Notes: a model not told the origin generated them from the letters alone. Positions 186-45,300 are shown, numbered from the whole stretch's first letter. The stretch: DNA of 62,964 nt, filler included, from Collodictyon triciliatum (GCA_043381765.1; 7 parts of 7 records of this genome joined end to end with filler, not necessarily neighbours in it), one strand, 5' to 3'. Made by a program: numbers and translations.

Positions 186-3100
186 GGTAAAGTTCATGTA
201 TAATGACTTTTTTATACATAGTGGGAAGCGAAGCCGTTCGAGGCTTTGGATTGCGTGACTGCACTGTTACTGTATCATGTGCTGCTGTTGGTGAATACCA
301 GTTCAATAAGTATATGGCTTTGTACTTGTCCAATGGTCAGTGTAAAAAATGATACATAATAACTTTATTTCTGATATTTATTACAAAATCGCGATTTTAT
401 GTCCTATTTTCAAGTTTTGAAGTATCGCAATCATATATAAATTGGATTCAAACTCACATTCCAGTTGTGAATATTACAGATAACTTAATTTTTCGATACG
501 TGGGGAAGGCGGGATTACCAGTGGTGAAGCAGCTGAAATGGTTCAAGGTAATACAAAAGCTTCAGTCATCTTTATTCAAAATGCCACAATTTTCTACCAA
601 CAATAGGAGAAAGCATTGATTATGTTTCAAATTAAAATAGAAATACATAGCTAATATTTTATTTTGGCAGGACCAATCGAAAAGAATCGTCTCCATGACA
701 TTCAGTCATGATGTAGATTGGTTTTTGTGCATTTCCACAGATTGCTCAATCATCATTCTACCTACACAACTCATTCTGCGCCAAGATGCCTCCGTTGAAC
801 AGTACTCTACAAACATACCACGAACTGCGCAGCCAATGTCACCTGCACGTTCGATTGCACCAATTGCGATGTATGTAACTCTTTATCCATTTTTTAAAAC
901 AAATATTTCCAAATTGTAATTTATATTAAGAAATTTGGGAATCGGAACAGGACATCCACATTTGAGGAAGAGGACAAGGCTAATACAAGATCAAACGCTG
1001 ATAGATGGTATTGTAATCTATAATGCAAAATCAAACTTAATCATAGTTAGAACATAAATTTATAAGCAATATTTTTTCTCTGCTGAACCCCAATTCAAAA
1101 TTACAATAATGTTATTTTCTTTTGAATATCGTTTTTCATATACTCAATCGTAGGAAATTTCCTTCTTTGTTAAACTTCGCTCGCAGCCAACCTGTACCAG
1201 AGTCAAATGTAATCAACTCAATATGTATCATTACTATTACTAACCATTCTCGAATAAAGGAAAAAACTATTACTAACCATTCTACTCAAAGATATAAAAA
1301 ATTATGAGAAATGCAACACTTATTCAATAAATTGAAAGACATAAAAATATAATGGCATATTAACACAAAAAAGATACCAGCAAAAAAGCCATCTCCGTGG
1401 AGCCATAATGATATTACAATTATACCACCTACCCCAACTCGTGTTGGCACTATAACTGGTTGTCGCTGGTGGCCGTGCCAAAGTGGAGCTGATTATGGTA
1501 GCATAACTTTTGTTTCGTATATCAAGCGAATCTCCTGGAGTTTTTTTTTTTAAAAAAGTATTTACTCAATTTTAACATTTTTTTTTTATTATTATTATTC
1601 TTTGAGCGCAGTGCTGACCGCATCTGTCGAAGGGATTTTAATGGCAATAAATCTGCAAACACATTCTGAGCATATTTTGTCTCGTGTGAAACATCCAATA
1701 GCATCATTTGGATTAGTTACCGATCCCAAAGATAATTATAAGGCAACACTAGCACACATACATTGATGTATTTTTATTTAATGTTCATCTTAAGGCCAAT
1801 ATGCTGGTCAACATTTCCTCATCTATGAAAACCACATATATATCATAATTTGCTTTTCTGTTTGTATTTTGTTTAAAAATACACACAAAAAAAAAAGGTT
1901 TAATCATACATATCACTGATGGACTAACTTTTCATATCAGATGCTTCTAATCCAGACAAAAGGTGGAGGATGCTTTCGACTCCTTTTAGAAGCCCACATG
2001 AACGGAGGGTATGACAACATCATTCAAACGCCAACTCGTACTATATTTTCCACGACTCCCTTAGCCAAATTTCCACAGGTATGTGTTGCATAATTTCTTG
2101 AAGTTAATGGCAATTTAAAATTACCCTCCATACACTTTTCCAGTCAATCTTAGATTATTCTATACCGGCCCTTTTTTTTCTTTTTCTTTTTTCTCACGAT
2201 TTTACAAAACAAATGGACCAGGCACTCACAGTGACCAAGCAAGAAATCCATCAACAACCTGTCTTTGGTAATTCAGCAACAAATATGTATATAAAAGATA
2301 AATGAATTCGGCGGGGGTTTCAATCATTGCCCGGAATCTTTAAGAAAGTTATTGAATAACGATAAAGTCATGCATATTTTCGAGTCAGAAGAACCAAACA
2401 AAAGAAATGCGCTTATGTTACCCTTTCATCGATTGTGATGTATAGGTGTATATCAGCCTGGTAACAACAAGCTTGAAATATACGATGAGGACCTTAACAA
2501 ATACCCTCTGTTTGTGTATCATTTGCCAAACGGAACACTGCAGTATCATGTTACCGAGAGATTCATCTTTGTTGTCTGTAAAGGTGGTTGGTTTATATTG
2601 CACAAAATCATGAATTTCTTCCTTTTTTTTTTTAGATTAACATATTGTAAGTCTCATTTTCTAAAAATTGAACGATACTATAAACATTAGATCAGCATGG
2701 CGAGAAGATTGTGGTGATATCCAATTTGATTGCAGGAACATCATCCGACCAAAGTCATAAATATTCAAAAGCGGCATACCCTGGTTCCACGATAATCATT
2801 CATCTCTTCTCTTTTGTTTCGATGGACTTCTATATGGCAATACGTATCCTATTTCGGTAGTTTCGGCCCATATTTAAGAAAACTCATTTGAACTCCGTAT
2901 CTCTAGCTGGAACTCCGACAAGACAACAAATTGAATCTGTTATGCAAGAATTTCGTATTCATGGTAATCAGGTTTAGTTACCTTTCGACAATATGTATCA
3001 CTGAGTTAATGGCAAAATAAATTAATTTTTCCCCCAAGAAACTTATTTTTCTGTTCATCGTCAAATTAATATGTTCTTACAAGAAATAAAATAAAAAAGA

Positions 3101-4920
3101 CACATAATTAAGGATGTGATATACTCTATCTTACCGCATTCCACTCAGTTAATTGTGGTTTACATATTTTAAGAGCGTTTTGGGTCTTTTTCGAGCACCA
3201 AGAAAGAATAGATTGGCGTGAGTGGATTTATAATCCTTTCATTTGTGTTTATGATCATTTTTTCTCATTAGGAGACTTATTTTTCAAAAAAAAATAATGA
3301 AAAATAATTATAGCGAGGGCTCATCTGAAAATGTGTTCCTGGAAGGTGTATATGTGTGGCTCTCTGATGGAATATACGAACTTCGACCAAAAGTATGACA
3401 CACAATCTTTTCATACACTTTCATAATATTTTCTCAATTATTTTTTGTTTACTTAGCAAACACCTGAGCTGATATTCAAACGCTTGGTTATGGATGGGCA
3501 CGATGTACACGCAGAATCTTTGGGGAAAACAATAGGACTTGACCTGTTGGGGCTATATGAGGAGCTTGCAGACGAAACTTTCGAGCGGGGAGATTTCGAT
3601 AGAGCCTTACAGTAAAATATTTCATTTTCTAAAATATTTACAAATTCCTAATTATCTAAAAAATAATTTCTCTCTTTTCATTTGCTTTTATCGGCAATAA
3701 TTGTATAAATAACACTACAGGTTGTACAACCTATCCAATGTATCAACCTCAAAATTGATATTCAAATTTATTGAAAAAGACCGACTTGATGTTGTCATGT
3801 CAATATTGAAGAAATTATTATCTGATCGAGAGGGTTAGTTATTCATCTGAGATTATGCACTGGCGATGTTGCACCTAAATAATTTATTTATATTGTCTAG
3901 CTCTTCCCATCGCATTGTCTCGAAAACTATCCGATGTGACCCTCCGCTGTTACATTTATATGCTTTTGTCCACGAGTTCGGAAAAAGAGGATTACGTAGT
4001 TACTTTTATTACAATTATTAATCAAATCAGACCAAAACATATTAGATGCACACTATAGTTATTGGAGTAATACTTGTTTTCTTTGAATAAAAAACAACCA
4101 GGTAATTTTTTTCTTAAAAACCAGGTACAGAAAAGGAATGAATTTGCATCGTTCCTTAGGGAGAATATCGATTACAACGCAGCCAGTGCTTTAATTCATT
4201 TGATATCTGCCGGACTTAAAGATCAGTTTCTCAACGTAAATGGAAAGCCCAATCATTGAATATATTTTAGTATTTAAAAAAAATTGGCTCACAAGTTCCA
4301 TATAAAAATTGGCAAATAAAAGGTTGCACATTATCGTGAGTTGATGCCTAGGGCGTTGAGTATGTTGGTCAATAGAGGAAACCTGAAGATTGGTTCAAAT
4401 GAATTGGGTTATTTATTGGTATATGGGTTATTCTTTATTTTTATGTGTGTTTTCTTTTCAAAATGTGTGAAGCAAGCGAATAAGGAAAAAGAAATAATTA
4501 TCCTATACTCTTCAATATCATAGGAAAAAGGGTACGGGGATCTCCTTCAGGTTTCTGCTGATGGAATTCTCTTGGATTGTTTAAGTGTATCGAAGCAGTT
4601 GCAGGTTGGTATAAACTCCAAACAAGCTGCTTTTCTAAAATTATGTAACTATCAATCTCATTTTTAGAATTCAGCATGATACATCTGAAAAATGTATTAT
4701 AGGTTATAATGGAGGACGTTCGAGGTGTTACATCCCATTACAATAGACTAAATAACTTACTTCCACTACTTCAAAAGAGAGAGTTGGTTAGTCTATTCCT
4801 TTCTTTATAGTTTTTAAAAAAAATTCAATTCAAATTTCATTTTCTTGAGGAAACATCATAAGAAGCATTCTTTTATTCTCAGGTGCTATCTCTGTTTATA
4901 AGCATTATTATTATTACTGC

Positions 4921-4980
<60 letters not shown>

Positions 4981-7900
4981 TACTATTACTATTATATGGT
5001 GCACCACCCGATGCTCACAGTTTCTCAAAAGGGCACTCAATAAATTAAAGCCAGTAACAATTTTTCACCCAATACCAGGGATACTCTATCCAGTACTATA
5101 TGAAAATAATTTATAATGAATCTTATTGACAAGTACAGATGGAACTTGCAAATTTTCTCGACCCGAACGGAAAATCCTTCCCTCAGCTCGCACAGAAGCT
5201 TCACGAAGATATCACGCGTCGCTTTGGCGAGACGCAGCCGTTAGTGGAGTTGGAAGAGGTCCTTTTTTTTTATTTTTTAATTAAAACCTTCATTCCGTTT
5301 CAATTGTAAATTTATCTTTCAGAAAATGTACCCATGTGCTCACCGATATTCAAAATACCCATCCTGATGCTTAGAAAGTACCTTTGCGAGTCGATGCTTT
5401 GGTTGAGCTTTATCTAAGTGTTCTTCTTGCCTGCTCTTCGATTCATCAAGATGAGCCCATGCAGCCTTTTCTCCAAGCACCACAGCTCCAAACTCCCTCT
5501 ATCGACCGAATCGGTGCGCCAGATTTCTGTAATTTTTTTCTTACTTAACTGCCTTGATGGTATCTACATCCACATATACACAAAAATTATACATATTAAC
5601 ATATTTACAAAGAATTTTTGAACTAATAAACCTGTGAGAGTTAAAATCTCTAAAAAATAACAAATGATTAATTAATACCATCAGCCAGCAAACCAGAAGA
5701 AGGACCAAAACCTTGCCGTATTAGTTGTGGTTGGGCACATAGTGCGCTTGTGACAAGTACAGAAACACCTGCTTTATCCTTATTTCTTGACTATCGCTAC
5801 ATTTTAAAGTAGCCTATCGTCAATTTTACAATCCCTACCTCAATATGCGTTCTTCATCTTCAAGAAAGATTTATACTCAACTATCGTTACAGCAAAAGGT
5901 GCTATATACACTACTGGCTCAAATGACTTTGGACAGTTGGGACACGGAAATACAAGAGCGTATTTACAATTTACCAGAGTGATGAGCTTGAAATCAACAA
6001 AGATAGTCGATGTTTGTTGCGGAGCAGAGCACACAATTGCCCTAGGAGGTTCTTTACTTATATATTGTCTCGCTAATATATAGCTGAAGAATCACATTCT
6101 TGTCTTTAAATATGAAGGCTTTCGAATGATATAGTTTGATGATGAATTCAGACAATATCATTCTCCAGATAACGGAAATGTGTATGTTTGGGGTCGTGGG
6201 CAGCACGGGCAATTGGGACTGGGCTTACCTTTCCACCAACACGTCCCTCGGATTCTTGACCCTGCTTTGTTCAATGGGAAAGTAATCGCCGTCACGTGTG
6301 GCCATTATCACTCTATTGTGTTGACAGGTTTTGTTTCCTAGAACTATACATTAGAGTGCAACATTAAATTGTTTTTGTGCGCTACATCACCAAAATCTTT
6401 ATCTACATTTAATTATAAGGATGTACATTTTTAATCAACGAACCCACGGAACAGAAAAGGGATGCGTGTATTCATGGGGTTCAAACAGCCATGGACAAAT
6501 AGGCATTGGAGCAGGAAATAGAAAAGCATCCTTCTCGGAAACACGCAGTACAAGTCGGCCGGGGACTGTGACCGAAATACGGCTTCCTATGAGCCCCGAG
6601 CCAAAAAGCGTTGATTTCAAAAACGACCAACTTTTTCCAGTTCATATAACGAACTTGGATGGGCGTCATATTGTCAAAATAGCTGCCGGGTTCTGTCATT
6701 CTGTTGCACTTAGTGGTAATTTTCATTATGAACAAATCTACTCATTCCAGTTGTCAATTAATGAAAGACGGTCTTTGAAATCATCTCGATTTATAATTTT
6801 TTGCATTTCACCTTCATCTTTTCAGAAAATGGGGATATATACAGTTGGGGTGGCGGTCAATCTGGACAACTTGGATTGGGTTCAACACGAGACCAATACG
6901 CACCCCAAAGGATTGATACTGGAGGGAAGAGATTTGTGTCTGTTTCATGCGGAGCTTTTCACACCATCGCTCTGACAGGTTAGTTCGTATTGCCTATAAA
7001 ATACTCATCAAAACGCTCGTAAATTATCTCTAAATAAATGTTTCTTTCTTCTGCTTCGGTATTTATCAAGCAACCAAGAAACACTTTTGATTTACTGATT
7101 ACTTTTCCTCTTTTAATTTTTTTTCAGATATCGGGGGAGTTTACACATGGGGAAAGGGCTCAAAGCACAGACTTGGACATCCCGAAAATCTTGCAGACAC
7201 AATCGTGCCAAAATGGGTGGCAGGTTTACGAGGAGTTTTTGTCCATAAGGCTGCGTGTGGACACTACCACAACATGGCGTTTTCCATGGGTACTCTACCA
7301 ATAACTTTATGGATTTAATTTTCATTAGAGCATTTTCCTTTCCATTTTTCTTTCTTTGTGTGCAAACAAAATATACTGAGCACACTCATTACACAACTTT
7401 GTAGACAGACTAAACTTTGTTTTATATTTCAATAATAGAATCAAGCGAGCTGTTTGTTTGGGGAGAAAACTCTGCCTCTCAACTGGGGATTGGCGTCACT
7501 GAAAATAAAACTGTTCCGACAGTTTCTTCATTTTCATTCCCTGCACCCATAAAAGAGCTGTGCTGTGGAGAAGAATATTCCTTTGTTATCCTAGGTAAAT
7601 CCTGTGAAAGTGTCGGCTCTTGAGTTGGCATTTCGATTTCTGCACCAGACTTTTACAGACACCGTGCTATAGATGTTTATGAATATTGACATTATATTCA
7701 TGGCTTAAGTGATACATGCAATTCAGAAAACAATGAACTCTATTCTTGGGGGCGCGCTGATGGTGGGCGTCTTGGGTTGGGGTTGGTTAGTTTGTCCTCT
7801 ATGGCAAACCCTGCATCTGTAGATCTTTTTTTGGATGGTCCGATTCCTTCTGGATTACATTTCGAAAGTCAGACAGGAAATAGTTCTCTAGGTTTGCTGA

Positions 7901-9428: not shown

Positions 9429-9554
9429 GTAAGGCGCGTTAAATGTAATTACCTGAAGAGCCAATTATATCAAAAAAAAAAAAAAAAAAAAAAAAAGGGG
9501 GAGGGGGGGAAAAAAAAACAAATAAAATCTTAATATATTTAGCGTTGTTTTTTT

Positions 9555-9654
9555 NNNNNNNNNNNNNNNNNNNNNNNNNNNNNNNNNNNNNNNNNNNNTT
9601 AATTAATTAANNNNNNNNNNNNNNNNNNNNNNNNNNNNNNNNNNNNNNNNNNNN
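9555..9654. other. Artificial contig spacer N44-TTAATTAATTAA-N44; also at 17781-17880, 28320-28419, 38846-38945, 49368-49467 and 59890-59989
   Basis: Identical 100-nt layout six times, with stop codons in all six frames; a separate plain N gap lies at 47788-48056. Confidence 0.97.
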
Positions 9655-10712
9655 GGAATTTTATAAATAAAAAAAAAAAAAAAGATTTTTTTTTTTTTTT
9701 TTATATTTAAATTATAAAAAAAAAAAAAAAAAAAAAAAGCTTAGAACTTATAATATCATTTTTGGCTCGTTGCCATGAAAAGTTGGATCTCAATTTCATT
9801 TGATCGAATCTATATTTAGGTAATATTTTAAAGGGAAAAAACCTTTGCAGCAAGCATCACATCTTCATAGTAGTTTGTGTATGTCCATTTTTTCCATTTC
9901 CCCTCGGCTTTTACGCACAAGGCGTATGCAGACGGATATCTAAGAAAATGGATCACTATACTTTCGATAATATATTACAATAATTGTAGCTTGTAATTGA
10001 TCTCGCCGATGTTCTGATTATGAGCAGTTTGTATAAAAAAATACGACGAATCAAGAGTTACTTCTCCACTGTCTGGCGAAAAAACTGGGGTACAGTCAGA
10101 GACTCAGACTCTGGCAGTTTCGAACGCTGTGGTCTTGGTGGCATTTTCTCAGTATCAATCCAGTCGCTTCAACTCCTTTGCTCGCCTATCCTTCTTCTCT
10201 CGGCCGGTTACTGAATGTTATGAACCATTAGACTTTTTATTGAACTCTTGCGCTATTTTTTACAGCCTCGGTCAAGTCCGGGTCCACATGGCACGCGAGA
10301 CAGAAACCCCTGGCTGGGCATTGGTCTTTGACTCTGGCATCAATCGCCTATCCAACCCACGAAACAGCATTGGCTTTATCATACGCGGGCTTGAACGCGG
10401 TTTTGATTTAAGGATGGAGTCAAGGGTTGGAGCGAGCCGGCGAATCAGTTTTGCCGCGGAATATAACTCACTGGCCCACGACTGCAAGTTGTCCTGTACC
10501 ACTGCTTTGCGCATGGTCAGAAACTTGTTCCGCTTTAGCTCCCCCAACCTGGCCGGTTTGACACATTCGCCCGCGCTCCGTTGCGCCGTTTTTCTCCAGC
10601 TGGAAACGCGCTTGTTGGGAATGAACCGAAGAGGAAGTGCCGATTTTGGTAATTTCAATATGTGGAATATATAATATTATTCATTTTTAAAACTTATAGT
10701 CATCAATTTTAT

Positions 10713-10873
10713 ACATGTTTTAATTATTTTTTTCCTTTATTCGATTCAAAGTGCAGTGAGGCTATGCCATACAAAGGGGCGAGATAGCTGCGCCAGGAAG
10801 AGAGCAAACGCCAGTAGAGAAGACGCTGCTGTATTGGACGATGCTTTCAAGCGTAGTAAACATATTTTAATTA
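10713..10873 (-). mobile_element. 133-nt poly(A)-tailed retroposed insertion (10727-10859) with a 14-bp target-site duplication; longest copy of the micro-insertion family
   Basis: On the minus strand it ends ...CACTGCACTTTGAATCGAATAAAGGAAAAAAA. Flanked by ACATGTTTTAATTA (10713-10726) and ACATATTTTAATTA (10860-10873), one mismatch. Confidence 0.75.
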
Positions 10874-10903
10874 AAATTTTGAACTTATATATGATATATG
10901 TAA

Positions 10904-12942
10904 CTAGAAGGGGCATACAAATCTTTCGAATGGTAAACTTTGTGCGCAAGTATCCAAGGTCTCACCACTTTTTTCACAGAGGTCGTGTAGTGGTGTAGGC
11001 TGCCAGGAAAGACCCGACAGCCCGTTTCTTTTAGAGGAACGTGTATGCATATTTTGAAGGATTAAAAAAACTTTCTTGAGTATATTCTTTGCGCTGTTAA
11101 AGTCCCTTGTCAAGAATACACTTTGTTTGCTTTCTGAGCGATTGCATTCTTTACATATGATACATCTAAACACTTTTTTAGTATTTCCTTTCAGTATCAT
11201 ATATTCCAGTTCTTTTTTCGCAGTTGCAGCACATTTTAAAGGTTCTAAATTCATCCACACTAACTGCTTCAAAACGTTTGGATAGTACTTTTCGTAATCC
11301 TCCTCCAATTGTTGGCATAAAATGTTTCATCGGGGATTTTCTGCTCCAGTCTCCATACGCCAGTATAACATCTTTGGCAAATGTCTTTTCGACTCAGTCC
11401 ATAAACAATTGCTAACTTCTTTTTGTGTTAACATACTGTCTCCATCTCATCTTTCAAAAAGTTACTTGTTCATAAAATCTGGAAAACTCTATCTAGTATC
11501 TTGATTACATAGATACATATTTTCGAAATTTTTCATAATCGACCATGCATGAATTATGTTAACTCAGTTCTGCCTCTAAATCGATTAAAGATACTCTTGA
11601 TGTCGAATAAAGGAAAAAAAAGATACTCTTGATGTCTCAAACCGCTGGTTCTCTTCAAAAGTCATGGTACCAAAATAAACAGCACTTTGTAAACATGTTG
11701 CCATGCATAACCCTGAAGCATTTTACTTTCCTTTTTTCTCGCGCAAGAGTATTTTGCGATTTTCAAGAGATTTGCTATCTCTTCTTCGGTGGGCCGTGTA
11801 ACGTAATTTCTTACCTGTCTCATCCACCATGTAAACAAAATTAAACTTACCTGCGTCCACTCTGTCTACATTTTTTTCGTCTCCAATAAAGATAACTGCT
11901 CTTCGGAAAGTTCATCTATATAGACATATTCTTGGTTTTTGATTATATTTGAATTTTGAATTTGAAACACCTCTCTTTTCAAATAGTAATGACCCCGCCA
12001 AGCCGTCTGTTTGTATCATGTATTTAAAATTGTAGTCTCTTTGATGAAAGACCCTCTTCTTCATTTCAAAGAAGTCGTCGCATAGTGTCTCTTTGCATCC
12101 TGATATATTATATATTAATGATATTTTCCAGACAATACTAATAGACCTATCAAACATGCGGTATCTAGAGTAACATGACACGGTATATTGTTTGTTATTA
12201 TAGAGATTGGCTGAAACAGTTTGGTTCCAATGTCCTCAAAAATGCGATTCATGTAAATCAGACATGGACTGTACTTATTTGGATTGGCTTTGATGTCCAT
12301 TCGATATCTTTTACAATATCGCCGGGAATGATACCATGCAAATGCGTTATAGCCCATCCTTTATATGTTGTTTTGGTATTTCGGGTTTCTTGAAGATGAC
12401 TCTTTTTTTTTTTCGTAACTCTGCCTTTTAATAGCTTCCGTCATATTCTCATCTTTAGGAACTGTTTGATTTATAAAGCGTAGTAACCTATTTACAAAAT
12501 GTTCCTTCATGTTATTATGGTAAGCTGTTAGCATTTGCATCCCCAAGTACGGTAATACACGAATCAATCTAACCAACGGAAAGCATTCTTCTCGGGACAA
12601 AAGGAATCGGAATTCATTGAGATAAAAAGTCATCTTGTCATCTCTCATATCTGGTTTTTTTTTAAAACTTGCGGTTGTATCTTGTGAAACTATTCCGACT
12701 GCCTTTAAAGAGTACGAGAAACAAATTTTACCGATTGTTGGGAGTTGTTGTGATTTCAAATGTAACATCTCGCATACAGATAAGTGTCGGTAACCAAATT
12801 ATGACACAATAGACCCGTATCGTCGATTTTTTTCATAGTCATTCACATTCTTAACAATCGACTTCAGAGATGTTTTCAGATTTCGATAGTGTGGTTTTAC
12901 AGACTTTAGATTCTCAAACTGAAGACGTTTTCTTTTCTTCAT
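10904..12942 (-). pseudogene. Decayed Fanzor1 (eukaryotic TnpB/Cas12-related RNA-guided RuvC nuclease) of a mobile element
   Basis: Across frameshifts: MKKRKRL...LKTSLKSIV; TAYHNNMKEHFVNRLLRFIN; DIKANPNKY..LIYMN..KLFQPI..IPCHVTLDTACLI; YNFKYMIQTDGLAGSLLF; RuvC-I VDAGKFNFVYMVD then KLRYT; ILAYGDWS..MKHFMPTIGGGLRK; RuvC-II VSVDEFRT.KMCCNC; CKEC zinc knuckle; RuvC-III TRDFNSAKNI. Several frameshifts and in-frame stops. Confidence 0.88.
11587..11636 (+). mobile_element. Micro-insertion GAATAAAGGAAAAA with a perfect 18-bp TSD, inside the Fanzor
   Basis: AAAGATACTCTTGATGTC (11587-11604) + GAATAAAGGAAAAA + AAAGATACTCTTGATGTC (11619-11636). Confidence 0.8.
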
Positions 12943-13780
12943 CTGAAAGTCTCTGTTTTACTTTTTCCTTTAGAAAACTACCGATTTTTCAAATTTAATA
13001 AAACGTTAGTCAATCAGTCAATAATAAAAACTGCACAAAATCAATTTATGTAAAATTAAGCATCTACCGAGACTTTCAAAATATGCGCTTTGTGGCAAAC
13101 AAACACTCAAAGTTTTTTATGCAAGTGATTTGTGGTAAAACGCTGAGGGCCGATTCGGCGAGTTCGAAAGGACGGCCGTATAGTTATTGTGGCTGAAAGT
13201 CAACATATCGGCCCCAAACAACATGATTACCGCCGCAAGTGTGGATAGTATGCTTTTTTTGAAATGTGTGTTTGGTGGCAGGTTTATGGTGTGGGTTCTG
13301 TCTGAGCCAAGACAAGGGCTCGTTTGTAATCTTTGAATTATAATGATAATATTGTATAATGGATAATAAAATATAAATTGATTACAGGAATAGAATGAGG
13401 TTGTTAAGAGTTTTGAACCTTGAGAAGGGCGGGATGACCGTGTGGTTATTCGCCTCCGGGTAGATATTTGGCCTCGGGACCAAATCCAGTTCAGGGCCTC
13501 TGGTAGTTGCAGCTCTTCAGAGCTGTATTTATTCTCAGCCCTCTCAGGTGCATAGTGATGAACCACGAATCCCACTTCCGTACCAAGCCGGCCTGCACCA
13601 TTATCCGACACACGTTTCTGCTTTCAACCAAGGCGCATACAACTACGTCTGACTGTAAAAAAATCTAAACCCCCTTCCTACCCTTGGGTCGAATAAGGAG
13701 AAAAAAATATTGCGCCGTGTACACATACCAAAATCCTAATATATGATAGATTGGAGACAGATCTCTTTGTTGCGCATCTG

Positions 13781-16700
13781 ATGTCCCAATCTGTCAAAAG
13801 TCCGTTGTGCGTTATGGCCTTTGGGCGTTTGTGGCATTCAATGCAGAAGCGCGTCAGGCTTTTCGGAGGTGTATCGCCAAGACCATTCCCTGAGTCCACA
13901 ACAAAGATTGTGACCGATCCCCTGCGGCGAAAGGGATGCGTTTGCCATTTTTCTTCGACACACAACCGAGTTCTCTCAACTAAACTCACCTTTTGTGGCC
14001 CACTACGTTGCTGTCAGCTCCGCGGGATAGCAAGATGCTTTGTTGTGGAGGAAGAAATGACGCGGTAGGGAAATATACTCTTCGCTGGCGGGCTAAGTCT
14101 CTCGTTTTGCTCTTGTTTTCTTTTTCTTTATTTTTCTATTTTCATTTTACTCCGACCAACAAGAAATTGAAGAGGAAAAAGAAATAAAGATGTCTTTAAA
14201 AAATAAGACAACATTCTCATTTCGGCTTTATTTTGATGTGTGTTAGAGAACACTTTTTTTTTATTTTTGTTGGATTGTGGCACTAGATTATTCATTTAAT
14301 GGGTGCGTTTTTTTTTTTTTTTTTGTTTAGAAGGGAGACACACCGGCTGGTGGCAAGGGTGGAAGTGCCAACCTCATTCAAAAGTAAGGCTTATCAGATC
14401 AATATCATCATTCAGTCTGCATAAAATGGCTCTCTTACAGGAAAATATTTATTCCAACGAAAAATCAGGTGAATACTGTGTTTTGTGTTTAATGGTTTCC
14501 TATTTGTAGTAAGGTATCATACAAAGGCTCAGAATACCTATATGCCGTTCACTTGGCTTGTGTAGCAGCCAATGATCCTTGTGAGGACAGATTCCTACTC
14601 AACCCAAAGGATTGTATCTACGGGGTTTGTTTCTATCATCATAATATACTTTACTACTTAATTTAATTAATTTATTTAATGTCCCATTTTAAATTTTTTT
14701 ATCAATCATATGATAGTCATTTACTCGTTAGACGAAAAACATTCTTATTATGATTTTTTGAATTATTTTTCCTTATTATAAAAAAGACCGCCTTGAAAAT
14801 CATGCGGAAACAAAGCTAAATTGCATTTTGTATTGATGCGATAATATAAGGTCTTTGATGGTCACGGGGGCGCGGATATTGCTGAATGCTGTACGACGAT
14901 GATGAATAGGCACATACTCAATGAGCTTTCAGAAGCACCGACAAACGTTTGTTTTCCCAAAGGAATCGAAATATACCGTTGGTTCAACAGATGAAATAAA
15001 ATATTTCAGTAAATACCAGTGCTTGTCAACAACCTCAATTGGTTATATATACAGGGAGAGGAAGACATCCACCGTGCTCTAGAACAAGGATTCATGAAAA
15101 CAGATAGAGAAGTACTCGATACATTTGTCCTGCAAGACCCTCACGGCAGGATGGCATTTATTGGCTCATGCGCTCTCGTGGCCCACATACGAGATTCCAC
15201 CATATACGTATCTAATAGCGGGGATAGCAGGTTGTCAATGAAATGTCATAATCCTTCCGAACGCATTTGATTTATTATTATGATTATTATTATGATTGTT
15301 ATTATGATTGTTATTATGATTGTTATTATGATTGTTATTATGATTGTTATTATGATTGTTATTATGATTGTTATTATGATTGTTATTATTATGATTAATT
15401 TTATGATTATTATGATTATCCCTCGGTCCTGCACAAAAGTTGAAAGGAAGAATAAAAAAATGATTATTATGATTATGATTATGATTATGATTATGATTAT
15501 GATTATTATTATGATTATTATGATTATTATGATTATTATGATTATTATGATTATTATGATTATTATTATGATTATTATGATTATTATGATTATTATTATG
15601 ATTATTATGATTATTATGATTATTATTATGATTATTATGATTATTATTATGATTATTATGATTATTATGATTATTATGATTATTATGATTATTATTAGCG
15701 ATCTCCTATCACAATCCGACGAGCATATTTGGAATTTCACCATTCTGCCTTACACTGTTCGTATACAGAGCTGTTTTGGGGTATGTTTCAGGCGGAGCAC
15801 CCCAATGCAAGTGGTTATCCACTGACCACAATGCTAGCAGTGAATCAGAACAAAAAAAGGTGATCGAGCGCTCTGGTGATGAGAATGCTATCCGGTAACT
15901 CTCTGTCCATCTACACACTGAACGAAATGAGTTTCCTCGGAACATTACTACATATAAAAAAATCAAAATTTATTATTTTTTTCGGCGGCAAAAATAGACT
16001 TTCCCCATTAAACATGATGCTTGGAACAACGTCTGCACCAAAGCGAGTGGCTGGAATTTTGCTTGTTACTCGCGCCATTGGAGATGCTTATTTAAAAGTA
16101 ATTATTTTCCTACCCATCATTTCTGTTTCATGTCAGATAAATATATTTTGTTTGAAAATCATTCTCACATGTGCACTTAATCCTCGTGTAAAATTGATGA
16201 TCTTCAATCCGGGCATATAATTTGGGCATGCAAACTAAAAAATATATGTACTTGTATCTTAACGTTCCTATAAATCAAAGCAAGGGGAGCTAGGAAACCC
16301 ATCAGAGAAGTCGTATATAACCGCCGAGCCCGAAATTATGTCTCATAAAATCACCGAGAATGATTTATTTGTCGTTCTGGCAACAGACGGGTATACATTT
16401 CCCCCATTTTATTTGCCAGCACGTACACATTTTTCAGGATATGATTTCTATATTTCAAAATGTAAAGCAAACAAATAATCATAATTCTAAGTACGCTATA
16501 TATCCACGTCCTATCGTTTAGACTCTGGGAGCATCTTTCTCCGGATGAAGTTGTGAATTTTATCTATGAGCACGGTGTGGATGACCAAGTTGCAACCAGA
16601 CTTCTTGAAGTAACATAATCTCGCACTCAACAAATAATATTGCCTCTTCACCTAGCTCTCGGCCTTGTTTGATAGCGGGCTGGCCAATAGATTCAAGAGG

Positions 16701-17780: not shown

Positions 17781-20072
17781 NNNNNNNNNNNNNNNNNNNN
17801 NNNNNNNNNNNNNNNNNNNNNNNNTTAATTAATTAANNNNNNNNNNNNNNNNNNNNNNNNNNNNNNNNNNNNNNNNNNNNTTTTATATGTTTTTATATGT
17901 TTTTATATGTTTTTATATGTTTTTATATGTTTTTATATGTTTTTATATGTTTTTATATGTTTTTATATGTTTCTTTTTTCCTTTTTCTTTTTTCCTTTTT
18001 CTTTTTTCCTTTTTCTTTTTTCCTTTTTCTTTTTTCCTTTTTCTTTTTTCCTTTTTCTATGCTTTTTTATTTAAGGAATGTTGTTGCTCTTGTGGACTAT
18101 TATCGAAAGTACAAGCGCCTGTTGCTGACCCCTGCGACCGGGGCTCCGTCAGCGCATGCGCATCAGAAAAGCCGTCGGTTTTCGCAAGCAGGCTCGGTTG
18201 ACACATCCAGATCCACTTTTTATTTCTTCGTATTGTTTTCTCGCAAACGAATATTCCAAATCAAGAAAAGAAACTGCCAAAATGCGATTCCCACATTCGG
18301 GTGCGCCGAGCTTTGAGGCAGGTTTGAGAAAAAACAACCAGACAAAGCGGGTTCGGGGAATATTCCGTGTCTTGGATGTTTGCAAACGGAGCCGCGTTGG
18401 TCGGTGCCGCAACTGCCAGAAATGTCATTTATAGAAGAGGAATCCGTTGAGTTCTCGAATTACAATAATGTTGCTATTTGTGGTAAATATTTTTCTTACA
18501 ATTTTTTTGGATTAATGCTGGCAGAATGTGGCCAAAAAAGAGACAACTTAGTGTTTTACGTAATTATGTTGAGATTATATACTATGCGATCCTATTCGAT
18601 TGTGTGAACTATATCCTATGCTGTGCAATATGTTTCCGCGCAGAAGCGACAAGCAGGGAAGTTACAAATGCGGTGGATTTGATGTATTCCTTGGTTAGGT
18701 GTGAAGATGAAGAGATAAAAAAACAAGCAGCCTCATTGGCACTCCTCGATAAGCTCTGCATTCGATTTCATCGGTAGTCGTGCCTATGGACACCTCGCCT
18801 GCCATGAATCGTGATTAAGTGAGAAAGTCTATCACCAAAAAAAAACTTTAAGTCCTGGGATAGGATACTAGAATATTGGCATTTCTGCACGCTCTGTGGT
18901 CGAAATAAAAAAAAAATATAATATGTTGAGATGGTTCTCAATAAGCAACTGATATAGCCTCGACCCTGCTCTGGCCAGTGAAGAGAAATGCCAAAAAAAA
19001 AAAAAAAATCAGGAATCAGTGAATACGCGGACCCTATGCCGGGCTGGTTGAATTCTCTCGATAATGCGAAGCCCAGCACAGAATGAACCTATTCCTACTA
19101 GTCTTTGGTATCGATGCATAAAAATTGGGGCTGAAAGAATTCGAATAAAAAAGACCTCGAAACTCCCAAAGAAAGAAAAAAAAAAAAAGAAAAGCAACCA
19201 TCTGGGTATAGGAAATAACCTATGGCTATCAGAAATAAGGCTGTTATGCCGTGTGATGAAGGCCAGTGTATGAAAAAAAAAAAAACAGCTCCACCAAGCT
19301 ATTGCTGTCATCGTTTAGACAACAAAAAGGTTGAAGTCCAACAACAAAAGGTGGTGGCTGGTTATGTTAAATCCTGTCGATATAATTGCAAATACTGTAA
19401 CAATAATAACCACAAAAAGGTGAATCTGTGGAAGGCAAGAGAAATTAAGTATTACAGTGCATAATTCCCACAAATGTATAAAACAAATCACAAGCCTCAG
19501 CTTCTATTGTGGGATTTGTGGTGTTCGCAATAAGTAGCACATTTTTGATCAAAGCGGCGATGCGTGATCCGGCCGAGTTTCTTGATGACCCTCTGCGTTG
19601 CTCATCCTGAGCGAGAAGCACAGCAGCCCAACGATACACTGCGGCAGCAGAGTGATCACTACTTGCCGGGCGCGTATGTGCTCAACCGGCTCCACATAGC
19701 CGATCAAAACCAGCCTTAGCTCTTTCTCTTTGGCTTCCTCATAACCCACACACCTCCAAGCCGAAGAACCAGAAACCCTCTGGCTTTTGTTTGGCGGCGA
19801 CCTTGCACTCTCCCTTCTATGTTTCTCTCAGCCTTGCTGCTCCCACTCTGCCTGTCCCTGATCTACCCTGGAATTTTTCTTTGGCGCACCCACTCTTTTT
19901 TTTTTTTTTTTTTTTGTCTTTTCTTTGCTCAAAACGCGCCCGTGAGTCAGCCACACAAAACTCGTGCCCCGCCTTCACAGCACCAAACCTTGAGAGAAAA
20001 AGGCTTGTGTCAAAGGGAGGGAGTCCTAACCAAGCACGGCTAAGCAGACCCTCAATAGCAGGGAGGCAGAAA

Positions 20073-26609: not shown

Positions 26610-26960
26610 TCGCGGCACAAGCCGGCATCTCGTGTGGCCCAAACGCTGCTAGGATACATCCCTGCACAGGTCGGCGTGCGTCTGCTCTGCATTTCAGTGG
26701 GAAACAGAGGATGTGTTTGCGTCTTGCCCAGCTGCAGGGGATAAAATCATTTTGATGAAGCAAGACCTCTCGGATTGGATTCCGTGTGATGTATTTTATG
26801 ATTGGGAATGGGATTGATGAGGAATGAAATGATAGAAAGAAGATAGAAGAGAGTGATAGATGATATTCACGACAAGGAAAAGGGAGAGAAAAACGAGTCT
26901 TGGTCGGGTTCGTTGACTCTTGCAAGGCGTCTTGGGCGACTCCGCTGTCGTAAGCCGAGC

Positions 26961-28134
26961 TTACTGGTCGTCGCCGAGCACTCCAAACATGTTGCTGGAG
27001 ATCGGTGCGGCCTTCGGCTTTGCGGTTTCATACCACGCCTCCACGCCAGTTTTCTGCCAGGCGAGAAAACAGCCTTAGACGCGTACCACTTTCAATCGAA
27101 GAAAGAAAAAAAGAAGATAGAAACATAAAAACAGGATGGTAGTATGTCAACCCATCTCAGTAGGTTGCGCACATACACATACCGATGGGGGCTTTTGTCG
27201 CAGGGCACTGTTTGACCACACTACGGCTCCCTTTGTGTCTGCTTGAGAGGGCCTACAGACATTACGATGGTCAATCAAGTGATATATATATGCACGGGCA
27301 CACCATGATAAATCATTTGGAAAGAGGGAAAAAATAACGGATCTAGATGAGGGTTAGAAGGAGCTACTTTTTGGTGACGGTTTCAGCGCCGAGTTTGGGG
27401 AACACCATCTCGCTGAGTTGAACTCCTTTGGTTTGTGGCTCTGCGGCGGCTTTGATTTGAATGGGTGTATGAGGGGCAGGAAGGTGGGGTTATGCACATG
27501 TTTTTGTCAGCGAAGGTTGATGGGGATTGAATTTCGTCGATGGTGGAGAATAGAGGGGAGGACTGTTGGCCAGAGGGTTTGCCACAGTCTTTTGCATAGT
27601 TGGCTGTATGCGTATTTACATCCATTACCCTCGCGCGTTGCGTTTGCCCACTTGGCCTCGGAACGCTTCACTAAAAAGGGTTGTAGTTAAAGGTTGGATT
27701 ATACTTTAAGTATGATAAAATGCTTTGGATTGTGGAGAAATAATTGTTTGGAGCGTTGAGGAAACCTACCTTCTTGTTGGGCTTGCTCCTCCCTGAATTT
27801 AGGGCGTTTTGTGTGTAGACAAACAAAGGACGAAGAAGGGGTAAAACAAAACAAAACAAAACAATAACAATATATTAGTATCATTCGAGTGTCGCTCCTT
27901 TAATCGAATAAAAGAAAAAATTATTCGATTATCACTTGCATTTTACTCTCGAGGCACGGATGAAGCCAAGGCTCATGTAATATCGAGTATATGGAGTTTG
28001 AGGAAGATATAATTAAGAGTTACGCACACCGAAGCGTTGGACGTAACGATGGTCTTTGAACCTGCGGTCACTCTGTTTTGTGCAACGTCGACAGAGGCAG
28101 TTTCTTCAACCCAACCCTGGCTGTCTACTTTGAC
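26961..28134 (-). CDS. Small low-complexity protein, CDV3-like motif order; 5' end lost at the spacer
   Basis: Seven short exons splice with consistent phases to VKVDSQGWVEETASV...EVKRSEAKWANATRE...EMVFPKLGAE...VWSNS...PISSNMFGVLGDDQ*. The family label is tentative. Confidence 0.6.
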
Positions 28135-28419
28135 CTGATAGGTGAAGTAGAGGTAAGGGAAACCGGGTGCATAAGAAAAAGAGAAAAGAGAAAAAAAGAG
28201 AAAAAAAGAGAAAAAAAGAGAAAAAAAGAGAAAAAAAGAGAAAAAAAAGAGAAAAAAAAGAGAAAAAAAAGAGAAAAAAAAGAGAAAAAAAAGAGAAAAA
28301 AAAGAGAAAAAAAAGAGAANNNNNNNNNNNNNNNNNNNNNNNNNNNNNNNNNNNNNNNNNNNNTTAATTAATTAANNNNNNNNNNNNNNNNNNNNNNNNN
28401 NNNNNNNNNNNNNNNNNNN

Positions 28420-28495: not shown

Positions 28496-28633
28496 AAAAA
28501 CAAAAAACAAAAACAAAAACAAAAACAAAAACAAATCAAAAGCTACCAACATAATTTTCTACCAAAGTCAGTAGATTTTTCATAAACCGTACGTTAACGA
28601 CTTGTCAATTTACTGAAATACAAAATATATTAG

Positions 28634-31600
28634 ACAGGTACTACAAAGATGAAACAGGAACTGGAGGTACTAAGGCAAAGACTCAAAGACAAGGACAACG
28701 ATTCGAAGAAAATGATGCAGTTACAATCACAAAAATTACTCAGAAGCGACAACGAGGTTCCTCTTCCCTGTTTTCCTTTTCCTTTCCTCTTCCTTTTTTT
28801 TTCCTCGTTTTTTTTCGTTTTTTTCGTTTTTTCGATTTTCCTTTCCTTTCTTATTCTTATCGTTTTCCTTCCATCCCCTTTTCTTTCTCTTTTATTTATT
28901 TTTAGACCTATCCTTGTTTTATTTTCCTTAAGTCATGGCATGATTTTACATACTGAACTTTTGCTAGATAATCTCCGAACTGACAAAAAAAATGACGGAC
29001 CAGCAGAACGAATTTTCCATATCCATCATAGCCATGCAGAAGCAGATAGAGTCGAAGGAACGAATGAAATGGGAAAAAACAATCGAAGACCAGCTACATT
29101 CACAAAGGGAAAAATATTCGTCTGTTACTCTTTCTAAAATAACATCGTGAAGAGACCATCCACCTTTTATGTGATATGAAAAATTAGTAATTCAAAACTA
29201 CCATATTATACTCTGATATTAAACCGATGGAAACAGAATTGAGCTATCAAATATATCCGAAGATTTCCGACTAGAAATCAAAGAATTACAAAGAGAGGTT
29301 GCTGAGAATGAATCAAGAGCAAATAAAGCCGAAAAGAAACTTAAAGAGCTCGTGTCCGCTGCAGAAGAGCGACTATATGTAAATAGAAAATTCAGTACAT
29401 ACTTACATCATCTAGTACAGAGTTGATGACAAATATAAATCGGGGGTTCTTTTAATACATTTATGACTACGGTTTCTTTCTTTCTTCCTTTGAAATCGAA
29501 TTGGATCAGATGGTGACAAAATTAAGCCGTGATATCAAGGAGCAAAGAGAGCGCTTTGAAGAAATCCTTCTTCGTAAGATAAAAGAGGACTTTGAAGGGA
29601 AACCATCAGATGGCCAATCAGTAGACCTTGTGAATGAATTGAGAAATCAAAAAGATGAAGAAATTCAGGTCCAACATACATATCCCCTTCTTAGTCAACT
29701 ATCCTAGTGCTCTTCTGTTTGGCTGACTCAACTTGCAAATAACTATAAAAAAAAACTTGCAAATAATTATATTTGCATTCATATTCAGGACCTGACGAAT
29801 AAATTAAGTGCCCGAGATGATGAGTTGGACCGGTTGAAGAATGAGTTGGATAGATTCGCTGAGAAAGGTATCCTTATCAACAATTCCACCATAGACGTTG
29901 CTTATACTTTTTCAATGAAACCTCGGTCATGAATCCGTAAGTCATGAAGGTTTTGATATATTTCAAAATTTAAAACTCTGTAAAAATCAGCGGAAGGCTC
30001 CAATATGAGTTCACTATCTGGTCTGCCCAGGGCTCGAAAGGGTGTTGATGCACATATTGTAGACAAAATAAAAGCTCAACTTGAAACAAGTTGTATGGCA
30101 TACGAGGTCGGAGAAGAACGGAATATATATATATATATTTATTGAATTGTATCATTCTTATCTCAAAAGAGAATATAAATCATTAGCGCATTTTTTTTTT
30201 AAAGGAACTGACGTTTCGGTAATCGCAATTTGATGACACGAATATTCAGGAATTGTGGTCGCGGCATATTGAGCTCTGCTTCAAGAAGGAAGATGTGGAA
30301 AAGACCTTGGATGAGGCTAATGACGAAAAGAACAAATTGTATGCCTGGGTAAATACCGTTTTCTTCATGGAGAGATGTATGTTTTGGTGCAAATATCTGT
30401 TGCGTCTGTCAAATTACTGACGATGGTATCGATCTTACTCAGAAATTTGGAGTGGAGAGCAAAATATCCAAGATTGAGGAACTCATGCTTGGGAATGGGC
30501 AGCATCATAACTTGGAAAAGCTAGATGGAAGTTCCTCATCGCTTCTCAGCAGAAGGAAATCAAGAGTATCCTTAATCTCTTCTTCGGGAGGAAAAGTGTC
30601 GAATCCAAGCACTCCTAGACTGACATCAAGGTCGCGGTCTCAGTCTATCGCCCAAACACCAACATCAGAGGGTGTCTTTAGTGAAAGATTGGACGAAATA
30701 CTCGGCGTGCTTCAAGTTGAAAGTGACCATACATTCAAATATAATTATGTACCATCATATTTGAAATTATCGTGAAAAGTCAATTTAAAGATACTTGGGA
30801 AACTCAAGTCAATATAGTTTGGTGAAGTATCTAGTTTCAAGCTTTTACTCGAATAGCTTACTTCAGCTTTTAAATAGGTGCAAATACTGTGTTTCATCAT
30901 CAAGAGGAAAGCAAGTCACGCTCCAGCAGCATATCTGGGCAACGTATATTTATTTTTATTCGTTTATTTATTTATCGGCACCTTTTCATTTTTTTGAAAG
31001 TATTTTCCTTTAAAAATAGAATATGTACAATCAGAATCAAAAGAATATCCACAAGGCTATCAAAGTCTGCACAATATTTTATTTCTTATTTTCTTATTTT
31101 TATTCGTTGAAAAGAAAGAATGTATATTATTTTGTACTTTTATAGATGCCAAGAACATCATCAACAAACGAGGTTCCTCTGGTGGGTCAGTTCCTTATCG
31201 CCATTCTTCTATTATCCAGCCTGGAATCCATAGAAGGGAATCAAACAGTAATCATCACGAGAAGCCAAACAGCATAACTGAAGAAGACGGCTTACTCAGA
31301 GAAAAGACTTTGTACCCCCACACCGAAATGAGTGAACTCATGAGCCAGAACGAAATTAATAAGGGAGAAACGGATAAAGTAGATGAAGAGAACGGTACAA
31401 GAGAAGTGAAATTGAGAAGTCGCCGCAACTCCATTCAGTATAACGATCCGACGAAGAAACCATTCGTACCCCTTTTGAATATGAACATGATGAAAGAAGA
31501 GAACAGTTTATCAGCCAAGGAAGATGAAATTATGGCTGAGAATGGAGGAAGCGGAGAAGAGAATATAGAAATTGCTGCCGACATTCCACATACAAGAGAT

Positions 31601-42300: not shown

Positions 42301-45300
42301 AGTGCTTTTGGGGATTACTGAAGAATATGTGAGTGCCATTAATAATGGGGCCATACCGAGTATCGGAGGAGGTTTCATTAACATATTCCCATCTCAATCT
42401 TGCTGTTAACTTCGAAGTCGATTAAAACCACCGCCTCAGTTTTTTTTTTGAAATTTTATGCGAGATCTCATTTGCATCCCCTCCTTCCCAGTGAATTTCA
42501 TGTTTAATACTCCTCGCCTATCAAATCCTAATGGCATTCTTATGAACCTATTTCTTGTATGAAAAGCTTTTGAAGGGGTTGTTTTTCGCCTTTGCGTTAC
42601 CGCGTATGAGGACGCGGTCGGCATTTACAAGCAAAAATTCGACGAAATGATTAAATCCGCCCCCAACGGCCTAGAGGTAAACTGGAGTTTTCCAAAAACC
42701 AAAAACCAAAAACCAAAAACCAAAAACCAAAAACCAAAAACCAAAAACCAAAAACCAAAAACCAAAAACCAAAAACCAAAAACCAAAAACCAAAAAGAGA
42801 TTGTAGGAAAAGAGCAAAAAATTCAAAGAACTAATGATAAAAGATGCCAATTTTTTTTTAAAAAAGAGAATAATGTAATATTTGAATAATTCAAGTTCAG
42901 GGTCATTACGAGGAACAATCAATATAATCAGCGTCAAAATACATTCCCTTCTTGAATCGAACAAACATATGGAAAACGTTAGGGTATATAAACATATGCC
43001 TGTGAATCTATGGCTAAAAATATATGAAAATAATCAAATAGGATACACAATTGCATGCTCTTCACGAAAAGCTATCCTCCGAAGTTTATGCCAGATATCG
43101 TAGCGCCGTTATTTCCAGAGGAGAGCAAGAGGAGAAATACTATGAAAAATTACATGTATATAATTTCTCTATTTATGGAGGCTTTTTTTTTATTCGACTA
43201 GGATAAATGTGCTCAATATTTTCGACTGTACTGGCCATCAACTCGTGCATTAGAGAGCCTGTTATGATAAGATGAAGATAAATATAGATTACCTTCTTAA
43301 TTAGGCCGATATCAGTGCACATTACAATGACAGACGCCAGAGCAATTCCCACGATTCCCTTGCCAAGTGTACTGCTTATCTCGGTATATTTTCAATACGA
43401 TAAGGAATTGCATACTTTCCCTTAGTAAAAATAATAACAATAATACTAATCGCTGAAATCAGTATATACCTTCACTACTGATATATCTTTGGAAAATTAT
43501 ATACCTAGAGCGGATTATCAACGACTACATCTCTCCAGAGTTGAAGAAAAATCAGTTTACACGTTTGGATGAAGTAATTGGCATTTGGAAGGAGGCTTTA
43601 GATCACTATCACAAGGTTTTCACTCGCTTCGCATAATTGGTGTTAAAACAGAAGAATTCAACGATAACTTTTATCGAGTGATTATGATCGTGAAACATTT
43701 TGTAATCGACAAAAATGTCATTTTGATCATGGTATTATAATTGCTGTATCATATTTTCTGATCAGCACTTTATAAACATTTATTATCACGTGTTTCTTCT
43801 GATGTACTTTTTATTACACCCGTAAAATTTAGGAGGCTGTTGGACCTGGCAAATATTTGGCATATCATCATATCACAACAAGCAGCTTTGTGTCATCAAT
43901 ACTTTCAGGTGCATACCCAGTTATTTTTTTTTAAAAAAAATAATCTACCATCCAATATATTTCGGAGCCAATACCTCATTTTTATGATTATGCATATAAT
44001 TACTTCCACATAAGCGAAGTCCTATGTAATAATGAAGATGAATGTTGACTAATTCTGTCCAATAATGAAATCTTGAATATGCAGCCCATAATTTCTTAAG
44101 CGACCAACTGAGACATCAACACGCTGTATACTTCAATCATCTAATACACCATATTCTAATAAATATGCTTTGAATTGAATAAAGGAAAAAATATTCCGAC
44201 AAATAATTTCATACCCGATGTTGTCAATTAATTTATACACAGATAACATTATTATAACAATTACCTTAATAGGATCAAATCATTGCCAAACAAAGCATAA
44301 TTGCAAGTGTGAGTGCGGGGACATCATATCCCAAGAAGCTTAAAAAACTACTTTTTTCTTTTATCAATTTATCATAGAGTCCTTTGAATCGAATAAAGGG
44401 GAAAAAAATCAAGTTATCATAGAGTCATTATGATTTATTCAAAATAGTAGTATACCCAAACATTTGGAAAACTCTATACATTAAAATATTATTTTTCATA
44501 ATCCATAGACTGAGAGTGAATTAAGAAAAATGAAGGACGAACTCGAATCTCAAAAAGGTAACTATTTATAAGTGTTCTCTTGTGCTCCATTCGGTGCAGT
44601 TATTATATATACATATATATTATCTCAATCGTAGAAATCCTTACTCTTTTAATGAATGGATGTATGGGATTGGTATAAAATGTGTCCCAATATTAACACG
44701 CATAATTTATCAAGCTGAACACGAACAAACAATCCTGAAGTAATAGTTCAATTTTATTATCAAAGAATAGAAAGATATCGAAGTGAAGCTAAAATTTTCT
44801 AATAAAGCATACAAAAACAACATACGCTAAGTGAATTATCAAAAAAAAAAAGTTTACGAGAGCGAGTGGAAATATCCGAGCAAAACATTACGCGTTATCA
44901 GGCAAAGCTAAATACTGCCAAGGAAAACGCAGAAGCAAAAGAAGAGTATGTATAATTTATATCATATTGTGTAATTTGGTTAAACTGCCAATACCAACCT
45001 AATATGATATTAACAATATTATTCTTCTTTTTTAAAAAAAAACATGACAGTACTTGCCCATAGGACCATTATCGATAAAATTATACCAGCAAATGCCTTT
45101 CTATTTCGTAATATTCGAAAATACCCATTAAAACAATTCCCATTTTTAAGCGAGCTAAAACGTCTTGGAAACCAAATCGATGAGAAGGAGGCGAAGCTAT
45201 TCGAAGCAGAAGAAGAAAAGGCTAGGTTGAAGTAAGCTTCGAAAAATAATTGAAACAGTGCTTGGGTATCTTATTATACCGCCAAATATTGTAATGTATT

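Follow-up and report, generated by a model that had tools for sequence, protein, structure and literature searches.

What are the short A-ended sequences of 14-26 nucleotides (nt) that recur between direct repeats of about their own length in a 62,964-base stretch of Collodictyon triciliatum DNA (GCA_043381765.1; the whole stretch is referred to here as the window), and where do they come from? A sequence-only reading of the window had assigned them to target-primed reverse transcription (TPRT) by a non-long-terminal-repeat retroelement, and this origin is supported here by a poly(A) end, by target-site duplications (TSDs) of 12-19 nt and by a nested series of 5' truncations. It is proposed that the inserts are TPRT products of an L1-like long interspersed nuclear element (LINE), truncated in the extreme at the 5' side to 14-26 nt, which is regarded as highly probable.

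The window consists of 7 contig pieces joined by linkers of the form N44-TTAATTAATTAA-N44 (9555-9654, 17781-17880, 28320-28419, 38846-38945, 49368-49467 and 59890-59989), with an additional internal gap of 269 N, and the sample amounts to 61 kb of short, gene-rich contigs.

Motif excess and target-site duplications

The 9-mer CGAATAAAG occurs exactly nine times on the two strands of the window, against a mean of 0.77 and a maximum of 3 in 100 dinucleotide-preserving shuffles, none of which reached nine (0/100). As had been described from the sequence, the motif is found on both strands and across contigs, with copies present in all 7 pieces.

TSDs were scored at A-runs preceded by this motif (one mismatch allowed), with a score threshold of >=12. 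Because microsatellites swamp the unmasked controls (33/496 control A5-9 runs had a TSD score >=13), masking with Tandem Repeats Finder (TRF) was needed before this test; after masking, 4/12 motif A-runs reached the threshold versus 1/398 other A-runs (Fisher p = 2.1e-6), an excess over controls of the kind that the retroelement reading had predicted. The four TSDs at motif-bearing A-runs are then 16-19 nt long, and the sole high-scoring control A-run is in turn an insert of poly(A) alone, flanked by a 17-nt TSD. In an anchored comparison of the flanks, 12/16 matches were found at four more copies (27905, 44176, 52204 and 60388), a level reached by only 0.42% of 5000 random unmasked sites, giving p ~0.004 for each copy, and seven other motif hits have flanks matching at 6-9 of 16 positions, which is the chance level. 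The four duplications first described as clean are as reported (18/18, 18/18, 16/16 and 18/19), and the two described as degenerate are those of the copies at 27905 and 44176. TSDs of variable length, ranging from 12 to 19 nt, therefore exceed chance at element copies, and the coexistence of perfect and decayed ones means that the insertions were spread over a long period.

Twelve copies are considered firm, nine of them with a TSD and three with 24-29 nt of similarity and no TSD. They are listed below in this order, followed by three possible copies.

1251..1265, plus strand: ultra-short copy CGAATAAAGG+A5-6, 15-16 nt; TSD 1233-1250 / 1266-1283, 18/18
11605..11618, plus strand: ultra-short copy (C)GAATAAAGG+A, 14-16 nt; TSD 11587-11604 / 11619-11636, 18/18
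10727..10859, minus strand: 133-nt copy ending in the tail; TSD 14 nt, 1 mismatch
41383..41406, minus strand: 24-nt copy CTTTGAATCGAATAAAGTT+A5; TSD 16/16
44382..44407, plus strand: 26-nt copy CTTTGAATCGAATAAAGGGG+A6; TSD 19 nt, 1 mismatch (18/19)
44167..44191, plus strand: 24-25-nt copy, variant CTTTGAATTGAATAAAGG+A6; decayed TSD 12/16
27897..27920, plus strand: 24-nt diverged copy CCTTTAATCGAATAAAAG+A6; decayed TSD 12/16
52187..52214, plus strand: ~28-nt diverged copy ..TTTGAATGGAACAAAG+A; TSD 12 nt, 1 mismatch; boundaries ±~2 nt
60326..60403, plus strand: ~78-nt old diverged copy; decayed TSD 12/16; 72% identity to the parent-type contig L001 (see below) over 85 nt
41158..41182, minus strand: 25-nt copy CTTTGAATCGAATAAAGGGGGAAAG with decayed tail; no TSD found (8/16)
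27087..27112, plus strand: 26-nt diverged copy CACTTTCAATCGAAGAAAG+A7; no credible TSD
36417..36445, plus strand: 24-29-nt diverged copy ..CTTTGAATCAAATAATGGAGAAAA; no TSD (9/16)
39215..39231, minus strand: possible copy CGAATAAAGGGAAGAGA, preceded by CCTAGAGT; no TSD
13690..13707, plus strand: possible copy CGAATAAGGAG+A7; no TSD
60568..60580, plus strand: possible tail remnant CGAATAAAGGGAA; no A-run, no TSD

The boundary of the copy at 11605-11618 is ambiguous by 1-2 nt because its TSD also takes in tail A's together with the C of CGAAT. The recurrence first put at about a dozen copies holds, but that count missed the two longer copies and took too little account of the diverged ones at 27087, 36417 and 52187. 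Likewise, the copies noted as having no clear TSD (~13688, 39220, 41159, 60381 and 60566) do exist as motif hits, except that the one at ~60381 is the diverged copy of ~78-85 nt, which has a 12/16 TSD. A supposed 261-nt copy at 26849-27109 with a 13-nt repeat was rejected, as its likeness to the element is limited to the last 26 nt and the repeat is purine-rich; this repeat, 261 nt upstream in relation to the 27087 copy, is probably due to chance because the intervening DNA is not LINE-like.

In the arrangement of the copies, same-strand pairs spaced ~215-225 nt apart are present at 41158-41406 (minus) and 44167-44407 (plus), and piece 5 of the window (38946-49367) carries 4/12 firm copies. 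Three hits of CGAATAAA share similar 5' sequence that is not that of the parent: 39215-39231 (minus), with the CCTAGAGT already listed, 43183-43204 (minus), with CCTAGT, and 13682-13707 (plus), with CCTTGGGT. These could be a subfamily with another untranslated region (UTR), products of a chimeric source transcript, or chance matches.

Two copies could be placed relative to a host gene with contigs of two small runs, X1 and X2, which behave as spliced RNA and were compared with the window part 42800-47787. Six sequencing runs were listed as containing window sequence, with only 6-14% of the sampled words, and none of them as an RNA run. The copy at 44382-44407 is intronic (GT..AG intron 44309-44508, confirmed by RNA) and has the orientation of the host gene, and the copy at 44167-44191 lies inside another RNA-confirmed intron (44126-44272). 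The AATAAA in the tail and the intronic, sense position of several copies would also be expected of a cis-element, such as a poly(A) signal or an intronic regulator, and a TSD about as long as its insert is superficially like the duplication with filler left by double-strand-break repair, the flanking repeats then being incidental tandem duplications. Such an origin without retrotransposition is barely credible, since an identical insert is found between unrelated duplications at >=9 loci and on both strands, the A-run always closes the insert and adjoins the downstream duplication, and the insert aligns colinearly with the terminal part of a LINE 3' UTR, as described in the next section. The fixed position relative to splice sites that would mark a regulatory motif is not observed either, with distances to the 5' splice site of 42 and 73 nt for the two mapped copies. 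At the clean sites, the junctions have 0-2 nt of microhomology.

An L1-like LINE as the probable parent element

The TPRT origin is further supported by the relation of the copies to one another and to a longer element. They form a nested 5'-truncation series with one 3' end, with lengths of 14, 15, 24, 24, 24, 26, ~28, ~78 and 133 nt, extended to >=1056 nt in a metagenome contig, L001, and all members of the series end in ..AATAAAG(G)-An. With the 133-nt copy as query, all other matches in the window are confined to its last 17-29 nt. A metagenome collection was scanned with a 19-mer from the interior of the 133-nt copy, the same 19-mer being present in the loose end of an RNA contig, and three loci were found, of which only L001 (1,157 nt) is the element; the other two, L002 and L003, lack the tail and match by chance.

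Read along its minus strand, L001 first has an open frame of 202 codons that continues past the contig end, then a frameshift, then 133 codons and a stop, which is followed by a ~92-nt 3' UTR and then by CTTTGAATCGAATAAAGG and A10. The zf-RVT domain (PF13966) is encoded in L001:549-1157, minus strand (E = 1.5e-7, 32.4 bits, cutoff 27.5), and the same C-terminal domain is present in the related proteins P0002, P0004, P0015 and P0018. About 110 nt of the 133-nt copy align at 85% and colinearly to the L001 3' UTR. A search of the window with L001 by nhmmer gave only 10724-10853 (E = 1.7e-18) and 60306-60408 (E = 2.9e-5), to which a more permissive blastn adds short tails. The longer parent that had been anticipated is thus seen in part, with an identical tail behind the UTR and the end of a zf-RVT open reading frame (ORF), but the family's own reverse transcriptase (RT) was not recovered.

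The ORF fragment of L001 was compared by phmmer with 1.84 billion representatives, and 14 proteins were returned, including seven fragments at 59-98% identity and four full-length relatives of 1226-1275 amino acids (aa) at 29-38% identity. Exo_endo_phos and RVT_1 are present in 4/4 of the full-length relatives, and weak zf-RVT matches, below the Pfam cutoff, in 3/4. The 302-aa family fragment P0017, a cluster member, is colinear with residues 772-1055 of P0009 (E = 6e-23), a region directly after the RT domain of that protein (RVT_1, 502-749). L001 and the fragments P0001-P0007, P0015, P0017 and P0018 all end C-terminal of the RT, and no longer proteins were found by a word index from the L001 ORF or from P0017. 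Exo_endo_phos was seen in the relatives, not in the family members recovered. A search of the ESM Atlas with P0015 returned only eukaryotic zf-RVT clusters. By homology, the parent is an L1-like LINE, whose own RT and endonuclease are presumed from relatives of 26-30% identity.

Independent instances of the tail were also found. In an RNA contig of run X2, the 30 nt before window position 44382 are UTR sequence, then comes the tail, and a loose end behind 44407, which may belong to the same contig, has four bases and then a long A-run; this is taken as polyadenylated RNA with both UTR and tail from a related organism. The protein P0013, from a different public, metagenome-derived assembly, has, compared with three homologues, 14 additional residues bordered by a duplicated EREIN. 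Its inserted peptide IFFSFIQFK matches IFSFIQFK, obtained by translating the reverse strand of the window copy at 44167-44192, and the extra F corresponds to three more A's. The P0013 insert would thus be a reverse-oriented tail insertion inside another copy from this LINE family, with a TSD of ~16-18 nt. A scan of genome contigs with an 18-mer of the tail gave 20 matches, all bacterial and none followed by an A-run, and one match in a viral contig that is likewise due to chance.

As for a short interspersed nuclear element (SINE) in place of a LINE, the 133-nt copy is colinear with a LINE 3' UTR and the 14-26-nt copies are the tail alone. No head derived from transfer RNA (tRNA), 7SL or 5S turned up in the Rfam scan of the window, which included no dedicated tRNA scan. 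No Rfam family reached the gathering score in the window, and Rfam gave only two chance matches to long non-coding RNAs in L001 (E = 0.12 and 0.82).

Several observations weigh against deriving the inserts from this LINE, or against taking the short form as its usual product. L001 is metagenomic, not demonstrably from the same organism, and is 85% identical to the 133-nt copy of the window; its ORF is frameshifted, with two overlapping frames, which makes it a dead copy, and no full-length or RT-bearing copy of the exact family was recovered. About six of the ~18 listed hits (39215, 13690, 60568, 46613, 4477 and 43183) have no TSD and match the last 9-10 nt only, and some of them may be chance. 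The preference for a TT|A junction that had been suggested is weak: T is found at -1 in 7/10 sites (P = 0.12 once A is excluded by construction) and TT in 5/10, and the count of T would be 8/10 with one site mis-registered by 2 nt corrected. This pattern is not significant; it is compatible with a T|A nick of the apurinic/apyrimidinic endonuclease (APE) type and proves nothing. The DNA contigs bridge neither 44167-44191 nor 44382-44407, and no empty-site or filled allele was scored there. Finally, the sample may contain too few long copies, as short-read contigs end at repeats and selection would act against long inserts in introns of 110-300 nt; such assembly and selection biases probably remove kilobase-sized copies.

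Truncation at fixed 5' ends

Among the firm copies, 10/12 are 14-29 nt long, the two longer ones are ~78 and 133 nt, and coding sequence is present in none. Among copies of <=300 nt, which short-read contigs can assemble and introns can accommodate, uniform truncation would place only ~10% at <=29 nt, so that by this informal comparison the skew to the extreme tail is probably not just an artefact of assembly or selection. It is plausible that the micro-insert is the element's usual product, as judged from these 61 kb of gene-rich contigs.

The 5' ends are also not scattered. When the copies were extended against two reference UTRs, four were found to share one start, the C of CTTTGAAT, which lies exactly 8 nt before CGAAT, and two short copies with perfect TSDs start at or within 1-2 nt of CGAAT. 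One more copy starts 10 nt upstream of CGAAT, and two long copies extend further; the start of the P0013 insert is within 1 nt of the first truncation point (CTTTGAAT). The clustering of truncations at CTTTG and (C)GAAT, noted in the sequence-only reading, is accordingly borne out by copy extension.

The events at a target site would be as follows. The endonuclease of the element would nick the bottom strand, mostly after T; the polyadenylated LINE RNA would prime on this nick, and the RT would copy the poly(A) and then stop templated copying after the next 9-18 nt. The top strand would be cut 12-19 nt away and the short complementary DNA (cDNA) joined with 0-2 nt of microhomology, leaving a 14-26-nt insert between TSDs of about the insert length. 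The order of these events is inferred.

For the fixed 5' ends, an early, position-specific termination or dissociation of the RT, at the transition from initiation to elongation, is slightly favoured here, and a pre-cleaved template fits equally well. In the latter case, TPRT would act on templates that are already short, namely 3' fragments left when the LINE messenger RNA (mRNA) is cut endonucleolytically, for example in RNA decay or by small-RNA-guided slicing, and beginning at the C of CUUUGAAU or at (C)GAAU, and run-off copying would be followed by a template jump or end-joining. This possibility, considered real if on the unlikely side, would account for the discrete ends, with four copies at one base and two clean copies 8-9 nt further 3', for the P0013 end within 1 nt of the first point, and for the 0-2 nt of junction microhomology, as expected of run-off plus a template jump. 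A second, unrelated tail family with two ~40-nt copies sharing a 5' start (described below) would also suit it, and template truncation before or during reverse transcription is the model put forward for human short processed pseudogenes (PMC2831318). However, RNA species with such 5' ends were not observed, the contigs examined being unable to show RNA ends, no ribozyme or known RNA family was found in the UTR (best E = 0.12), and longer templates must also be in use, given the 78-nt and 133-nt copies.

The sequence-only reading had instead suggested a 3' stem-loop, CTTT-GAATCGAAT-AAAG, that recruits the RT and then stalls it at the base or loop. One truncation point does fall at the 5' base of the proposed stem and the other in the middle of its loop, but the folding results make this explanation very unlikely and do not support a stalling hairpin. 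For the 27-nt tail, the minimum free energy (MFE) is 0 kcal/mol, neither the MFE nor the centroid structure contains a base pair, and 200/200 shuffles fold at least as well; in the 99-nt UTR of the window AAAGG pairs instead with a far-upstream CCUUUGU. The z-scores of three 3' UTRs are -0.83, +0.41 and +1.01, and the stem changes in diverged copies (CTTTAAT..AAAAG at 27897 and CTTTCAAT..GAAAG at 27087) show no compensatory pattern.

Similarly to L1-type LINEs, which combine an APE, an RT and a C-terminal CCHC/zf-RVT, the proposed L1-like source of the micro-inserts has poly(A), an AATAAA near the end, variable TSDs of 12-19 nt and truncated copies sharing a 3' end, as well as a parent-type ORF with a C-terminal zf-RVT and relatives with Exo_endo_phos and RVT_1. 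In contrast, the parent-type 3' UTR is only ~92 nt here, and the copies are far shorter: de novo inserts in engineered human L1 assays have a median of 712 bp (n = 99; PMC11702581), whereas here 10/12 firm copies are 14-29 nt, with two fixed 5' bases and not a broad spread. Human short (<=300 bp) processed pseudogenes, described by Terai et al. 2010, are likewise 3'-terminal retrocopies known only by poly(A) and TSD that had escaped homology-based annotation; their TSD lengths peak near 15 bp, and the novel ones are 356 bp in median length (PMC2831318). Those derive from cellular mRNAs, whereas the inserts described here derive from the LINE's own tail, are an order of magnitude shorter and have recurrent end points. 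How little templated sequence L1 machinery can leave beside poly(A) is seen in the shortest Alu insertion listed in human disease tables, in SERPINC1, with 6 nt of Alu and a 40-nt tail, together with a 1.4-kb deletion (PMC4859970). Such cases are rare, whereas here the short form predominates in the sampled DNA, with intact TSDs. Word searches of open-access full texts returned no LINE family with prevailing copies of <30 nt and fixed 5' ends. What is new here is how extreme and how discrete the truncation profile of this L1-like LINE is; the kind of process itself is known.

Inserts of 14-26 nt are below the detection limit of repeat annotation. The ~12-18 copies per 61 kb would correspond to ~200-300 per Mb, extrapolating from one window, and if micro-inserts dominate LINE output, retrotransposition rates and the amount of TPRT-derived sequence are underestimated in compact protist genomes. 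The two fixed stops would be a natural read-out of TPRT failure in vivo, which bears on LINE 5' truncation and second-strand joining. In addition, sense AATAAA and A-runs in introns of 110-300 nt could affect the choice of mRNA 3' ends in the host.

Other short poly(A) inserts and the host sequence

In addition to the main family, other short inserts with A-ends were found in the window. The poly(A)-only insert among the control runs is an A7-9 at 29747-29753 (within 29730-29770), between 17-nt direct repeats with 1 mismatch, and looks like a TPRT aborted inside the tail, that is, the zero end of the series. A second poly(A)-tail family, ..TCCTGCACAA..TTGAAAGGAA.AATAA-An, is present at 15420-15460 and 40082-40125, with a remnant near 40380-40396. 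Its two copies of ~40 nt have a common 5' start; one is inside a (ATGATTATT)n microsatellite, and the other has a decayed ~11-nt TSD and lies just upstream of a likely 3' splice site. A 62-nt insert at 37988-38049, unrelated to the main family, ends in A5-8 and has a 13-nt duplication with 1 mismatch.

The poly(A)-only insert, the two ~40-nt copies of the second family and the 62-nt insert would together fit a general early cut-off, in which most TPRT in this organism, whatever the family, is cut after ~0-40 templated nt at element-specific positions. This generalisation is doubtful. If true, it would fit a host mechanism by which the LINE template RNA is cleaved or the RT is displaced as soon as it has initiated. 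Thousands of 14-40-nt scars would then record aborted retrotransposition genome-wide, invisible to repeat finders, and would seed AATAAA and A-rich sequence into introns.

The window has a G+C content of 32-43% and contains 93 tandem arrays (4,166 nt in total, TRF), with microsatellites at the contig ends and in many internal stretches, for instance at 42692-42796. As most contigs end in microsatellites, the sample probably lacks repeats that exceed the read length. No ORF of >=200 aa was found in the window, except one crossing N's. Between 43155 and 46982, 14 GT..AG intervals of 113-300 nt are absent from the X1 and X2 contigs, the shortest exons measuring 23-46 nt, and these spliced-out intervals and tiny exons indicate an intron-rich eukaryote as the source; the host is an intron-rich, AT-rich microbial eukaryote. 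For a dynamin exon, the closest protein found was a EukProt transcriptome entry at 91% identity. The host gene lies on the plus strand at 43040-47682, with >=14 GT..AG introns supported by spliced contigs of the two runs, and one loose end carries what we take to be a SMART-type template-switch oligo, which suggests single-cell cDNA libraries.

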